Below are positions 2,650 to 34,066 of a stretch of DNA of 64,000 nucleotides, in pieces. A program made the position numbers and the translations under genes. The DNA is from Candidatus Nomurabacteria bacterium (GTDB taxonomy: Bacteria; Patescibacteriota; Minisyncoccia; Phycocordibacterales; SBAW01): positions 149,252-213,251 of the forward strand of contig CALREW010000001.1 of the NCBI GenBank assembly GCA_943356415.1. Direction: 5' to 3'. Positions within the stretch are counted from its first letter, which is position 1. Every line of letters starts with the position of its first letter. The notes beneath the pieces are model-generated. The model did no database searches. It had not been told where the DNA came from and worked only from the letters and a program-made list of their open reading frames with translations.

Positions 2650-3523
2650 CGCAATCCTTTTAAGCATAGCTACTGTAGCTGCGGTCGCAGGGCTTCTTCT
2701 CCTTGGCTATCAAACGTACGCACCGCGACCAACGGTGCCGGAAGCGCTGCGCCCTGCACCGACGCCCGCACATTTTAGCGCCGTAACATTGCCGAAAGAC
2801 GCACTCACCGCACAGGCGGCAATACTTTACAATCCCGCAACCAAAGAAGTCTTGTATGCAAAAAACGTCGAACAGCAGCTACCGCTTGCATCTCTCACAA
2901 AACTTGCGACAGCGCTTGCCGCGCTTTCACAAGGCGAAGATCGTTTAGTAACGATCCAATCACAAGATCTCAAAGAAGAAGGGGACTCGGGGCTCAAAGC
3001 AGGAGAGACGTGGCGTCTCGGCGACCTTATCGCCTTCGCACTCACCACCTCAAGCAACGACGGCATAGCGGCAGCGGCAGCGGGCGCTCTCACTCGTACT
3101 GCAGCGATTGAAAAAATGAACGAGGACGCAAAGGCGCAAGGTCTTTCACAGAGTTATTTCCTTAATCCGACCGGGCTCGACATTTCATCCTCGACCGCAG
3201 GTGCATACGGTTCAGCGCGCGACGTCGCGCAACTCGTCGAGACTATGCTACGAACGTATCCGGTCATTTTTGAAGCCACTGCTTATGAGCCCAGCGCACG
3301 CGCACCGAAAGAAGTGAGCACCCTTGCTCCTATACACAATCTCCCGGGTTTTGTTGCCGGAAAAACAGGCGACACAGACCTTGCAGGCGGAAATCTTGCT
3401 GCAGTTGTCGATGGTGGTCTAAACGAGCCACTTATTGCGGTAGTGCTCGGTTCAACACGCGATGGGCGCTTTGACGATGTGCGTACGTTAGTCGCTGCTG
3501 CACAGTCACAACGAGCACAATGA
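2639..3523 (+). CDS. D-alanyl-D-alanine carboxypeptidase (serine-type PBP5/6-like); start placed at ATG 2639 (MTRDAILL) rather than track start 2567
   Basis: SxxK (SLTK), SxN (SSN), KTG (GKTG) motifs; N-terminal TM segment. Confidence 0.7.
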   Translation: MTRDAILLSIATVAAVAGLLLLGYQTYAPRPTVPEALRPAPTPAHFSAVTLPKDALTAQAAILYNPATKEVLYAKNVEQQLPLASLTKLATALAALSQGEDRLVTIQSQDLKEEGDSGLKAGETWRLGDLIAFALTTSSNDGIAAAAAGALTRTAAIEKMNEDAKAQGLSQSYFLNPTGLDISSSTAGAYGSARDVAQLVETMLRTYPVIFEATAYEPSARAPKEVSTLAPIHNLPGFVAGKTGDTDLAGGNLAAVVDGGLNEPLIAVVLGSTRDGRFDDVRTLVAAAQSQRAQ

Positions 3524-9258: not shown

Positions 9259-10563
9259 ATGCGTTTCCGTACTGTCTTGGTATTTATTTTTGTGCTTAGC
9301 TTGTGCGCCTCGGCGCAACGGGTAGCCCTTTTTATACCCACATCTATCGTCTACGCCGCAACTGAAGAAGAACTTAAGGCGCAAATAGACGAACACTCGA
9401 AACGTATCAATGACCTTGAAGCCGAAATATCAAAAATAGAAGTCGATCTTGCGACAACGACAAAACAGAAACAAACCCTGCAATCGACCATAAAAACGAT
9501 TGACCTCTCGCGTCAAAAAGTGAGCAGCAACATCAACCTCACTCAAAATAAAATACAAAAAACTGATCTTCAGATAACCGGACTCGCCGAAAATATTACC
9601 GAGACGGATAAAAAAATACACCGTCAACGCGAGGCAGTCCTTCTCGCACTCGCGTCCGTTTCTGATCTTGAAGATAGCGGCCTCGCCGTCTCACTTTTCT
9701 CTGGTGAAGATTTCTCGTCGTTTTTTGCTTCTGCCGCATCATTGTCGAGTTTGCGCGAAGCGCTACGTGCTCAAGTAGAAAAACTTTCGGGACTCAAGAC
9801 CAATCTTCAGGTCAGCAAAAGTTCTGCTGAAACTAAGCGCGCTGAACTTGCCGCACTCAAACGCGACCTCGCAGACCAAAAATCGCTTCTCGATCAAAAT
9901 CGAAAAGAGAAAGATTCGCTTTTAACTACAACAAAAAACAAAGAAGCGAACTATCAAAAACTCCTTGAAGAAAAGCGTGCGCTTAAAGCGCAGTTTGAAT
10001 CAGACCTTCGTGACTTTGAAAACCAGCTTAACCTCACGGTTGATGCGGCGAGTATCCCGAAATATGGCTCCGGCGTTTTGAAATGGCCAGTTGATAAGGT
10101 GGTTATCACTCAAAACTTTGGCAACACGGCATTCTCGACACAAAACCCACAGATTTATAGCGGCAAAGGGCACAACGGCATCGACCTTGGTATTCCTTCC
10201 GGTAGCAAAATTAAAGCTGCACGCGGAGGCACCGTAAAAGGTACCGGCGACACTGACCTTACCTGTCCGAATGCCTCCTACGGCAAATGGGTTCTTGTTC
10301 AACACGACAACGGACTTTCAACCCTCTACGCCCACCTCTCCTATATCCGCGTGACCACGGGCACGAGTGTTGCGACAGGGGATTTGCTCGGCTACAGCGG
10401 CAACACTGGCTACTCAACTGGTCCACATCTTCACTTCACTGTCTATGCAACACAAGGTGTCGAAATACGTTCCTTCTCTAGTCAGTCGTGTAAAGGAAAG
10501 AAGTACACCATGCCCGTTGCTGATACCAAAGCGTATCTAAATCCGCTTTCATACCTACCGTAA
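9259..10563 (+). CDS. M23 family metallopeptidase with N-terminal coiled coil (EnvC/NlpD-like murein hydrolase activator)
   Basis: Signal peptide, long coiled coil, C-terminal GHNGIDL...YAHL...HLHF M23 motifs. Confidence 0.8.
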   Translation: MRFRTVLVFIFVLSLCASAQRVALFIPTSIVYAATEEELKAQIDEHSKRINDLEAEISKIEVDLATTTKQKQTLQSTIKTIDLSRQKVSSNINLTQNKIQKTDLQITGLAENITETDKKIHRQREAVLLALASVSDLEDSGLAVSLFSGEDFSSFFASAASLSSLREALRAQVEKLSGLKTNLQVSKSSAETKRAELAALKRDLADQKSLLDQNRKEKDSLLTTTKNKEANYQKLLEEKRALKAQFESDLRDFENQLNLTVDAASIPKYGSGVLKWPVDKVVITQNFGNTAFSTQNPQIYSGKGHNGIDLGIPSGSKIKAARGGTVKGTGDTDLTCPNASYGKWVLVQHDNGLSTLYAHLSYIRVTTGTSVATGDLLGYSGNTGYSTGPHLHFTVYATQGVEIRSFSSQSCKGKKYTMPVADTKAYLNPLSYLP

Positions 10564-12748: not shown

Positions 12749-13192
12749 GTGAGACATCAGGAGCTCGTAAAACGGATTCGCGAAAATGCTGAGCAAGGCC
12801 GGAGATTGGAAGCCTTTTTGCTACTCATGGCGTACATAGAGACTATTTTCAACATGCACCTGCAGTTTGTAATTATGATGGCTGCGAATAAGCAAATTGG
12901 TGATAGTAAGCCAATGGATACTGTCTATAAGAAAATTGAGCGGATGCGTATCTCAGAAGTTTTGCAAATGCTTTTTGACATGCAGCAGATCGAAAAAGAG
13001 TTTAAGAACAACCTGGGAAAACTTTTTGATAAGAGGAATCAATTAATACACGACGTCGTAAGTCACGTCATGTTCAACGTTAAATTAGACGACTCACTTA
13101 CTGAACCTTACGAGCAGGCTTTTACTGTGTTGGAAACGGAAATTTTTAAAAGCTGGACTGCCACACTTGATCAGCAATTTACAGGCAATTAG
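12749..13192 (+). CDS. Hypothetical all-alpha protein with a HEPN-like Rx4H motif (KRNQLIHD); candidate RNase toxin or abortive-infection effector
   Basis: RNQLIH matches the R-[NHQ]-x3-H HEPN catalytic motif; AT-rich; GTG start; convergent with a membrane protein gene. Confidence 0.45.
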   Translation: MRHQELVKRIRENAEQGRRLEAFLLLMAYIETIFNMHLQFVIMMAANKQIGDSKPMDTVYKKIERMRISEVLQMLFDMQQIEKEFKNNLGKLFDKRNQLIHDVVSHVMFNVKLDDSLTEPYEQAFTVLETEIFKSWTATLDQQFTGN

Positions 13193-13232
13193 GCAGAGAA
13201 GTCTTGTCTGAAAGAAAAAGTATTTACATCCC

Positions 13233-13958
13233 CTACCTGTCTCTACTTTTGCGCCACGCGATAAACTCTAGGAACGGCAAGCAGACAAAATGACAGGCTT
13301 CTCTAAACAGGAGAAGTGTGCCGATCCAGACACTTAGAACAACGTAGTAAATCAAAATCGCATAATCCCATTTGAATATAGTGTGTATACATGCGTCTGA
13401 TCCCGGGCCAATATCGATTGCCATATGCTGCCCAGAGCTGAAGGTTGTTGTAGAAATTGGCGTCGCCGCAAAGAGAGTAGTTGTTGAAGCCATCCGTTTT
13501 CCAAGTTCACTTATGGGCAAGTTAGACCAAATGGTTTTTTCGTCGTGAACACTCAAACTAACGGAGGCGTCAGTTGGTGTCATTACCACATAAGAAACTT
13601 CGCTTGCTTGTGAATATTCTCCAGTTTCTACATTTCTAAATCCGACTGACTTTAGGTTGTTTGACGCCACAACATCAGCAATAAACCAACTGTCGGTAAA
13701 TTTGATTATAGGTTCCAGTGATTTCAATTCTTCATACGTAAAAGTAGTACTCTGGTTATTTCTTTCAGGGATTAGGCAAAAATCTCTTGAATAATGCTTA
13801 TCAACCCACACTAAAAATATAAAAGGGACGACAAGAATAAAAAGTGTTTTCCTAAATTGAGCACTGGCAAATAATCTAACAAGGAAATCTTTGACTTGCG
13901 GACCTTTCGAAGCAAGCCATTTTAACCTGACCCACCATTTAATAAGCACTTCTTTCAC
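13233..13958 (-). CDS. Hypothetical membrane protein (TM helices at both ends, central extracytoplasmic domain), AT-rich
   Basis: Hydrophobic segments LFILVVPFIFLVWV and YAILIYYVVLSVWIGTLLLF; convergent partner of the HEPN-like ORF. Confidence 0.45.
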   Translation of the reverse strand: MKEVLIKWWVRLKWLASKGPQVKDFLVRLFASAQFRKTLFILVVPFIFLVWVDKHYSRDFCLIPERNNQSTTFTYEELKSLEPIIKFTDSWFIADVVASNNLKSVGFRNVETGEYSQASEVSYVVMTPTDASVSLSVHDEKTIWSNLPISELGKRMASTTTLFAATPISTTTFSSGQHMAIDIGPGSDACIHTIFKWDYAILIYYVVLSVWIGTLLLFREACHFVCLPFLEFIAWRKSRDR

Positions 13959-14153
13959 GTTCTAACCCTACCACCAATAATTTACGCTAGAAGGGGTCTT
14001 CCCTTCTCCTGTAGAATGTAGCTGTGGGCTATATAATTAAGAAGAATATTCTACTTACTGGCGCTGGCTTCAGTGCAAATTTTGGTGGTCTCCTTGCTGC
14101 GGATAGTCCGAAACGACGAGGGAAAACCGCCAGAGTAATCGGTTCGGTTCGAG

Positions 14154-15167: not shown

Positions 15168-15295
15168 ACAGTCCCTTTTCTCGTTCGGCCCGGGAAATCC
15201 TTAGGGAGGCCGAGGGGACAAATAAAAGCGCTCGGCCGCAATGACCGAGCCCAATAAGGGTATGTTTTTTGGCTAGTACCGGCAATAGCACCTCC

Positions 15296-15322
15296 TTGAC
15301 AGGACCCGAAGGTGGATATTAA
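15296..15322 (+). promoter_or_regulatory. Weak candidate promoter TTGACA-N15-TATTAA
   Basis: Consensus -35 with suboptimal spacer; a hairpin terminator lies about 130 nt downstream. Confidence 0.25.
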
Positions 15323-15426
15323 CGTTGCAAAATAAGGCTATTTTAGGAGATTTGCCAAAGAGCAATATTTATTGAGTTTTAGAACCCTTTCTCCCCTGCC
15401 GCCGGTTAGGTGAGCCCACAAAACAT

Positions 15427-15457
15427 GCAAAAAGGAGGCTTTTGGCCTCCTTTTTGC
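15427..15457 (+). terminator. Hairpin GGAGGC-ttttg-GCCTCC flanked by A-run and T-run (bidirectional terminator-like)
   Basis: Read directly. Confidence 0.55.
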
Positions 15458-15667
15458 ATCTCTTGCGTCTCTTTTGCTCTAGTCGGGCTGCCGGTCGGCC
15501 AGGCGTTCAAGCTTCGCCGTCGCTCACCTTGCCGCACGGCCCTGGCTCGTCATCTTGGGCCGGTGCCCAAGATATGCCTCCGCCTTTCGATTCCCGGCCG
15601 CAGAGTATGCAGATACTCTATTCAGCCCACCCATACGTAAAAGAGACGCTCTCGCGTCTTTTTACTT

Positions 15668-15741
15668 TGGTCGGGCTGCCGGGAATCGAACCCGGTCCAC
15701 ATCCACCCCATGGATGCATACTACCGGTATACTACAGCCCG
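15668..15741 (-). tRNA. tRNA-Pro (anticodon GGG), CCA encoded
   Basis: Manual fold: 7-bp acceptor stem (C1-G70 to G7-C64, 5' CGGGCUG) with discriminator A71 and encoded CCA, U8, D-loop with GG, anticodon loop AUGGGGU (G37), T-arm CCGGG-UUCGAUU-CCCGG. Confidence 0.7.
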
Positions 15742-33994: not shown

Positions 33995-34066
33995 TGACCC
34001 CACGGGGAGTCGAACCCCGATTAACGGCTTGAGAAGCCGGCGTCCTAACCATTAGACGATGGGGCC
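33995..34066 (-). tRNA. tRNA-Glu (anticodon CUC), CCA not encoded
   Basis: Manual fold: acceptor GGCCCCA/UGGGGUC, D-stem GUCU/GGAC, anticodon loop UUCUCAA, T-arm CGGGG-UUCGACU-CCCCG. Confidence 0.65.

Follow-up and report, generated by a model that had tools for sequence, protein, structure and literature searches.

The window analysed here is a stretch of 64,000 nucleotides (64 kb) from a Candidatus Nomurabacteria contig (CALREW010000001.1), and our subject is an element that occupies positions 15479-15637 of its minus strand, behind the tRNA-Pro(GGG) gene. The overall locus consists of the tRNA gene, a weak hairpin terminator (terminator 1), the element, and a strong hairpin terminator (terminator 2), all read from the minus strand. 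On this strand the element begins at 15637, past the tRNA end at 15668 and terminator 1, and so lies directly 3' of the tRNA. The element is probably the gene of a small structured non-coding RNA, one of a family attached 3' of tRNA and transfer-messenger RNA (tmRNA) genes, which resembles the tRNA-linked repeats (TLRs) of Escherichia coli and carries tRNA-mimicking ends. The host belongs to the Parcubacteria (Patescibacteria), as indicated by a neighbouring 197-aa RNase T/DnaQ-like exonuclease that is 68-85% identical to Kaiserbacteria, Adlerbacteria and Paceibacterota homologues from metagenome-assembled genomes.

Duplicated tRNA sequence behind the tRNA-Pro gene

An original prediction, made from the DNA letters, had proposed a tRNA-Pro(GGG) gene at 15668-15741 (minus), followed by a GC-rich (~60%) segment between two hairpin terminators that contains a 13-nt direct copy of the tRNA 3' end and an inverted T-arm-like fragment, and had read the whole as the footprint of integrase-mediated insertion. 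What it described is present, at coordinates right to within 1-2 nt. The tRNA gene is returned by both ARAGORN and the Rfam tRNA model RF00005 (15671-15741, 52.5 bits). Both hairpins are found, the segment between them measures roughly 160 nt, and the GC content is 0.595-0.605 over 15400-15700, compared with about 0.47-0.52 in the surroundings.

Specifically, the 13-mer GTCGGGCTGCCGG occurs exactly at 15482-15494 and 15670-15682 of the plus strand and nowhere else in the 64 kb. When one mismatch is allowed, the expected number of matches is 0.09 and none of 100 shuffles gives two, so that the direct copy is beyond chance, and it does not recur at many sites. It is the last 13-19 nt of tRNA-Pro that the element repeats at its end, and the repeat runs on imperfectly beyond the tRNA end (23 nt at 87%). 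Additionally, TTCGATTCCCGGC lies exactly at 15586-15598 of the plus strand, again beyond chance (0.08 expected), while its second site, 15678-15690 of the minus strand, is the T-arm of the tRNA itself. The sequence at 15586 is therefore an inverted exact copy of the T-loop and T-stem 3' side of tRNA-Pro.

The element is a full-length member of a family

Homology was first seen by eye in L032, a locus whose insert of ~135 nt ends in an 18-nt copy of its own tRNA 3' end, and then by motif scan. The L032 insert and the window have the motif CCGGRAATYGAARGSCGGAG-CAT in common, and the inverted T-loop copy tracks the T-loop of each tRNA, with G in the window and A in L032. A metagenome scan with this motif gave at least 120 loci, about two thirds of which follow one architecture; the family counts rest on the matches listed. 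A covariance model, R1, built from 19 members with the window copy left out, finds at least 103 copies (83 + 20) in the 120 metagenome loci listed, plus the L032 copy. Some of these copies lack the search motif, and some contigs carry two to four of them. R1 was also run on 83 related loci, 80 of them from species representatives in GTDB and 3 from closer relatives, and recognises only L032 there, which comes from a GTDB relative.

In the window R1 gives a single match, which is the element and which covers the model from its first to its last position (Table 1). Family members are 130-190 nt long, and about 100 other copies have counterparts of the 13-mer and of the inverted T-arm piece as integral parts of their architecture. 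The original view that only a short remnant of inserted DNA remains is contradicted by this full-length match and by the helices of the family, which covary as those of a folded single strand. Three of the loci could be assigned by exact-protein look-ups, to Yonathbacteria, Paceibacterota and a Parcubacteria-group genome, and every copy checked taxonomically belongs to Parcubacteria.

Table 1 Features of the tRNA-Pro locus in the window
Feature	Position	Strand	Basis
tRNA-Pro(GGG) gene, CCA encoded	15668-15741	minus	ARAGORN
Terminator 1, weak hairpin GAGACGC-GAGA-GCGTCTC, then T-run	15640-15663	minus	terminator scan: stem 15659-15644, 6 pairs
Element, full-length family member	15479-15637	minus	model R1 built without the window copy: 66.1 bits, E 9.4e-17, model positions 1-147 of 147
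5' closing strand GUGGGCUG	15623-15630	minus	read from the sequence; in minimum free energy (MFE) and centroid folds
Hairpin 1, AGAGUAU-CUGC-AUACUCU	15602-15619	minus	R1 alignment
Conserved motif CCGGGAAUCGAAAGGCGGAGGCAU	15574-15597	minus	sequence and R1 alignment
Hairpin 2 (variable arm), AUCUUGGGC-ACCG-GCCCAAGAU	15552-15573	minus	inverted repeat, fold, R1 alignment
GACGAGCCAGGG junction, then hairpin 3 with apex GAGCGACGGCGA	15495-15551	minus	R1 alignment
3' closing strand CCGGCAGCCCGAC, exact copy of the tRNA-Pro 3' end	15482-15494	minus	repeat search, R1 alignment
Terminator 2, strong 15-bp hairpin and T-run directly after the element	15425-15459	minus	terminator scan

No Rfam family covers the element in searches of the window region (E up to 10) and of 15 canonical loci (E up to 0.1), and the weak matches to SpF41, permuted tmRNA, isrK and MicX are due to the tRNA T-arm or to terminators. 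Searches with the segment by blastn and nhmmer against the loci of 80 relatives gave no match outside the same population, a MAFFT global alignment of the window and L032 left the inserts unaligned, and no published description of the family was found in the literature searched. The copies form a large family of Parcubacteria, not catalogued before, and are likely to be genes of small structured non-coding RNAs.

The same data bear on a decayed attL/attR scar, left at tRNA-Pro by a prophage or genomic island that was mostly deleted later. Such a scar would account for the tRNA 3'-end direct repeat around a GC-rich insert that most relatives lack, but we consider it very unlikely. Random deletion remnants would not share a 147-position architecture at more than 100 loci behind 23 tRNA classes and tmRNA, and the full-length R1 match to a conserved family with covarying helices largely refutes it; moreover, there is neither an integrase nearby nor a related sequence in the viral and plasmid collections searched.

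Conserved architecture and covariation of the core

Read 5' to 3' in the tRNA sense, the consensus begins with the complement of the acceptor 3' strand, A or AG, and hairpin 1, mostly with a CUGC or CUUC loop. It continues with the T-stem 5' strand and GGAAUCG, GAAAG, G-S-C, GGAG(N)CAU and hairpin 2, followed by GCGAG, G-S-C, GGG, hairpin 3 and YCGUGAC, and it ends with CGAUUCC, the T-stem 3' strand, the acceptor 3' strand, the discriminator and sometimes CCA. As shown by consensus modelling, the predicted core is a three-way junction comprised of hairpin 1, the GGAAUCG-GAAAG-GSC-GGAG motif, hairpin 2, the GCGAGSC-GGG motif and hairpin 3.

The covariation is clear. The RNAalifold consensus has compensatory changes in 14 of its 25 pairs. 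In the alignment of 75 distinct sequences, which was fitted to the model and so favours structure, 96.3% of cells are paired, double changes occur in 20 of the 25 pairs, and the covariation score is 0.493, whereas shuffles score 0.167, with none of 500 as high, and slid partners about 0.06. All nine pairs of the hairpin 1 helix covary in the family, and alignment columns 91/193 are split between CG (35 copies) and GC (34); an unfitted MAFFT alignment, too, plainly shows the swaps in hairpin 1 and G-S-C. The tRNA-sense strand is rich in G.U pairs (22 of 68 at columns 204/314, for instance), so this is the strand that folds, and RNA is the natural reading of it.

The window copy has the corresponding parts. 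Its minus strand, the tRNA sense, folds with -69.7 kcal/mol (z = -2.8 relative to shuffles). The CUGC tetraloop of hairpin 1 is that of the family consensus and conforms to YUNY. Within CCGGGAAUCGAAAGGCGGAGGCAU, the stretch CCGGGAAUCG is intact at 15597-15588 and complements the T-loop and T-stem 3' side of the tRNA, GAAAG forms the junction, and GGC (15584-15582) pairs with GCC (15546-15544), so that, of the CG/GC swap in the G-S-C helix of the family, the window has the 'G' variant. The apex motif GAGCGACGGCGA of hairpin 3 is found also in L113, L213 and L189. At the ends, GUGGGCUG pairs with CAGCCCG (15490-15484) in seven pairs, one U.G among them, and in the predicted folds this strand is a mimic of the tRNA-Pro acceptor stem; the MFE fold contains an alternative pairing of CGGCCGGG with CCUGGCCG. 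Both a copy of the tRNA 3' end (13 nt exact, CCGGCAGCCCGAC) and the complement 5' of the core (CCGGGAAUCG) are present. The CGAUUCC segment is shortened by 2-3 nt (CGA--CC), and because of this loss the repeat is 13 nt instead of 19 and the score is below typical.

Such ends recall a degenerate tandem duplicate, or pseudogene, of tRNA-Pro. The tRNA-Pro-like 5' (UGGGCUG) and 3' (CCGGCAGCCCGAC) strands, together with a similarity that reaches the downstream terminator over the 23 nt mentioned above, fit this explanation, to which we nevertheless give the lowest probability of all those weighed. Neither the tRNA model nor ARAGORN returns anything on 15479-15637, no cloverleaf is found, the D-arm, the anticodon arm and an intact T-loop are missing, and the interior is homologous to elements at unrelated tRNAs and tmRNA. 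The pseudogene is thus refuted as a full explanation, while the terminal strands of the element may ultimately be tRNA-derived.

The ends of typical copies match the gene in front of them

Fifty-seven non-redundant copies have an upstream gene on the same strand, and these genes are tRNAs of 23 anticodon classes or tmRNA, mostly at a gap of 0-48 nt. At least 12 exact nucleotides are common to the element and the 3' end of its host gene in 33 of the 57 pairs, compared with 3 of 523 mismatched controls. The identity block has a mode of 19 nt and starts nearly always at CGATTCC, that is, at T-loop C56. The complement of the 3' copy lies near the 5' end of the element, where hairpin 1 interrupts it exactly at the boundary between acceptor stem and T-stem. 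Since the complement is split at the point where these two stems meet, the terminal helix mimics the acceptor/T-stem 'minihelix' of the tRNA next to it. This arrangement shows that the direct 13-mer and the inverted T-arm fragment of the original prediction are the two strands of the element's terminal helix.

Copies that had seemed to stand alone, with the ends GGAGAUG...CAUCUCCACCA, proved to sit behind tmRNA genes (Rfam RF00023). The 5' strand of the tmRNA-linked copies (L193, L203, L211) reads GGAGAUG, with A3-U70, where the tmRNA has GGGGAUG, with G3.U70. This A3 is seen in three of four tmRNA cases, and it shows that the 5' strand was not copied from the gene's 5' end but complements the 3' copy by Watson-Crick pairing. 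The 3' copy of the L193 element ends in ACCA, the tmRNA gene itself in ACAG. A mini-tmRNA or an aminoacylatable mimic was also considered and rejected because A3-U70 replaces G3.U70 in the tmRNA-linked copies; without this alanine identity pair, alanylation is unlikely.

Where units stand in tandem, all of them end in one and the same 3'-end copy. The tmRNA gene of L211, for example, is followed by two different units, each after a terminator and each ending in CGATTCCCGCCATCTCCA.

Just past terminator 2 of the window, at 15383-15424 (minus), GUGGGCUCACCUAACCGGCGGCAGGGGAGAAAGGG is similar to the 5' strand of the element and to its CCGG...GAAAGG start, without hairpin 1; judged by this resemblance it may be a decayed piece of a second, tandem unit, and R1 reports nothing for it at E up to 10. 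In L160, an 'orphan' copy of the family at 9770-9941 (plus) has no tRNA or tmRNA within 1 kb upstream, and its ends (CCGAGGG/CCCUCGG and GCGGG/CCCGC) pair mutually and match no nearby gene.

A proposed mode of expression

From the layout and the analogy with TLRs, we propose that the element would be co-transcribed with tRNA-Pro through read-through of terminator 1, which is probably leaky, and that transcription would stop at terminator 2. The tRNA-like terminal helix would supply the determinants of tRNA end processing, with RNase P acting at the 5' side and RNase Z or exonucleases at the 3' side, possibly with CCA addition. The product would be a stable RNA of ~150 nt, released at a level coupled to tRNA transcription. 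Read-through with processing has likewise been proposed for TLRs, and the weak terminator 1 and strong terminator 2 of the window would be in keeping with it.

Several points weigh against a functional RNA gene of this kind. Transcription, read-through and processing by tRNA enzymes are steps that we infer from sequence and layout. A recognisable terminator stands between gene and element in 19 of 53 copies and just downstream in 12 of 77, so that the dual-terminator layout is not general. In a fixed register the closing helix stands out little, with 53% paired compared with 45% in shuffles, a weak signal because the model leaves the 5' strand out of register, and the helix is degenerate in many tRNA-Pro-linked copies; in many others it is clear, and perfect 9-bp duplexes occur in 17% of copies compared with 1.9% of controls, which speaks for it. 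The window copy is itself diverged, with 66 bits compared with the typical 90-130 and the deletion in CGAUUCC, and may be decaying. Finally, a functional RNA alone leaves unexplained why one core stands behind more than 20 genes with matching ends, and some mobility or cassette exchange is required.

Patchy distribution and probable exchange between loci

The orthologous tRNA-Pro locus is filled in three of about nine cases, namely the window, L032 and L200, and empty in L009, L010, L012, L037, L045 and L086; uninterrupted tRNA-Pro loci, one of the checks proposed for the original prediction, thus do exist among relatives. In L010 and L009, the sequence that follows the tRNA directly is orthologous to the flank past the second copy in L032. 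The core of the window copy shares about 70% identity with copies at other tRNAs or at tmRNA but 57-60% with those of L032 and L200, and nearest neighbours within the family often stand behind different tRNAs. In L160, the orphan and a tRNA-Gly(CCC)-linked copy lie 4.7 kb apart and have a ~125-nt core that is 97% identical, with unrelated, mutually complementary ends. Taken as sequence comparisons, the patchy loci, the flanks, the core identities, the neighbours and the L160 pair argue against simple vertical descent. Transposition-like spread and gene conversion between resident copies can each give these patterns, and the element has probably spread, or been exchanged, between tRNA and tmRNA loci as a cassette with no linked protein gene.

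The sole other tRNA gene of the window, tRNA-Glu(CTC) at 33995-34066 (minus), has no family element downstream, so that the occupancy of tRNA genes in this genome is partial.

Clustering of the open reading frames (ORFs) within 4 kb of about 80 copies gave housekeeping genes only, such as LepA and aminoacyl-tRNA synthetases, and no recurrent integrase, transposase or reverse transcriptase. The 64-kb window holds no XerD-like gene. The motif scan of IMG/VR gave 21 matches, all of them chance, R1 finds nothing in viral loci, and blastn against phage and plasmid collections gave no match. The check for an integrase or a matching att core has therefore come back empty. An insert that is bounded by a duplicate of the tRNA 3' end and absent from most orthologous loci stands as originally predicted, but its integrase-borne origin does not: of the marks of an integrase scar, the direct repeat is found, and a recombinase gene or a matching attP is not.

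Compatible with an RNA gene, and possible although we give it clearly less credence, is a non-autonomous mobile DNA element, similar to cis-mobilizable elements (CIMEs) or miniature inverted-repeat transposable elements, that inserts into the T-loop-to-3'-end part of tRNA and tmRNA genes by means of a recombinase encoded elsewhere. Its fold would then be a single-stranded recombination site (cf. integron attC and CTX-phage attP) or a guide RNA, and the 19-nt repeat a crossover or target duplication. The patchy orthologous loci with the clean filled/empty pair of L032 versus L010 and L009, the tandem accretion of units, the several copies per contig, the two L160 copies and the affinity of the window core to copies at other genes all fit such an element, as does the 5' strand being the Watson-Crick complement of the 3' copy. 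Its targets would be tRNA and tmRNA genes, with the identity block beginning in the T-loop, a start that Williams, writing in 2002, is said to have described as the classic sublocation of tyrosine integrases. The lack of recurrent enzyme genes around the copies, of a XerD-like gene in the window and of copies in IMG/VR and in the phage and plasmid collections speaks against it, however, and the G.U pairs and conserved junction nucleotides suit RNA better than DNA hairpins. Each hop between tRNAs would also require that the 3' copy and the 5' complement be re-matched, and we know of no recombinase that re-matches both ends upon hopping; the L160 pair is equally explicable by gene conversion of the core between resident copies.

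More speculative, and in our view improbable, is a mobile RNA gene without any protein. Such a cassette would target the T-loop-to-3'-end part of any tRNA or tmRNA gene by using its own complement as a guide or as a folded att site, and would regenerate the target at its far end, which gives tandem accretion, with host enzymes only. It would be a self-targeting parasite or commensal of stable-RNA genes in the reduced Parcubacterial genomes, a process of which the TLRs of E. coli would be left as relics.

TnpB/IscB omega-RNA, IS200/IS605 ends, IS110 bridge RNA and an attC-like site were also considered, and no associated protein is present.

Comparison with known systems

The TLRs of E. coli include RtT (rttR), downstream of tyrT-tyrV, and RrA, RrB and RrF, downstream of 5S rRNA (Stenum et al. 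2021, PMC8144298, and through it Egan & Landy 1978 and Rudd 1999). [quoted passage not shown]

On the genome of MG1655 we confirmed that the 178-bp units overlap the last 19 nt of tRNA-Tyr. Specifically, the RtT units (L229; MG1655 1287066-1287236, rttR) each hold GGGGAAGGAT, a perfect 10-nt complement of ATCCTTCCCC in the tRNA-Tyr 3' copy, so that a classic E. coli TLR and the Parcubacterial family agree in their 'complement plus copy' layout. The two groups also agree in being non-coding units of ~100-180 nt that directly follow a stable-RNA gene on its own strand, in a unit 3' end that equals the 3' end of the host gene (13 nt exact in the window; family mode 19 nt), and in having one to several tandem units per locus. 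There is, however, no sequence or model homology between them. The RtT model RF00391 finds no match in the window region (E up to 10) or in the 15 canonical loci (E up to 0.1), while the E. coli units score 133-137 bits, and R1 reaches at most 4.6 bits on the E. coli locus. Unlike the TLRs, the Parcubacterial family has one covarying three-way-junction core at 23 tRNA classes and tmRNA; to our knowledge, E. coli TLRs at different loci share no single conserved core. Additionally, its hosts are Parcubacteria and not enterobacteria, and tmRNA is added as a host gene.

The family resembles the att duplications of integrases and CIMEs in that a direct repeat taken from the 3' portion of a tRNA or tmRNA gene, with an identity block beginning in the T-loop, bounds an insert that is patchily distributed and can accrete in tandem. 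It differs from them in having no integrase or cargo, a uniform size, RNA-type covariation and an internal complement of the repeat, and in not being found in the viral and plasmid collections.

Another parallel is offered by tmRNA, the 4.5S RNA precursor, mascRNA and bacterial YrlA, whose tRNA-like ends borrow tRNA-processing enzymes. Similarly, the terminal helix of the family imitates an acceptor/T-stem stack and could recruit RNase P, RNase Z and the CCA-adding enzyme. Unlike those RNAs, it copies its own neighbour gene nucleotide for nucleotide, and its T-loop is replaced by an extension of the helix into the large core. The Rfam models of tmRNA, permuted tmRNA and YrlA score below threshold on the element, in the window region as well as in the 15 canonical loci.

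Self-splicing and self-cleaving RNAs were considered and rejected. A group I intron is not supported, as the identity block is preceded by C and not by G, no group I Rfam match is found, and the element lies outside an intact tRNA; the group I introns described for tRNA genes of Patescibacteria are anticodon-loop introns at 35/36 only (PMC13011429). Hammerhead, HDV, twister and similar ribozymes have left neither core motifs nor Rfam matches.

Other features near the locus

A non-coding stretch of ~130 nt lies upstream of a gene for a 149-aa lysozyme-like protein, at 15215-15360 (minus) in the window and at 3355-3500 in L087, a relative whose exonuclease is 82% identical. Kept in both, it reads CCTAAAATAGCCTTATTTTGCAAC ... 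CCTGTCAAGG ... CTGCTATTGC ... CCTTATTGGGCTCGGTC-TTGCGGCCGAGC, followed by a T-run, with its terminator end at 15250-15230. It has no Rfam match and may be a leader or a small RNA. In the place of tRNA-Pro, L087 carries at 3108-3232 a segment of ~120 nt that is bounded by an inverted repeat (GTAGACCACTTTAAA ... TTTAAAGGGGTCTAC) and gives neither a tRNA nor an R1 match. Additionally, positions 12800-14000 of the window are low in GC (0.32-0.43, compared with about 0.50-0.60 on both sides) and hold ORFs of 147 aa (plus) and 241 aa (minus), which have no Pfam assignment in public gene calls; this region may be recently acquired DNA.

Implications

A duplicated tRNA 3' end is commonly taken for the att site of a genomic island, an interpretation that would be mistaken in these genomes. 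The family, with its conserved, clearly covarying core and over 100 sequences, opens the long unexplained TLR phenomenon of E. coli to comparative study. Parcubacteria have tiny genomes, in which very little DNA is non-coding, yet they keep many copies of ~150 nt behind their tRNA and tmRNA genes. The retention of so many copies in reduced genomes suggests either a function in tRNA expression or processing, or a highly successful selfish element without a gene of its own. What we find most interesting is the pairing of one core with so many host genes.

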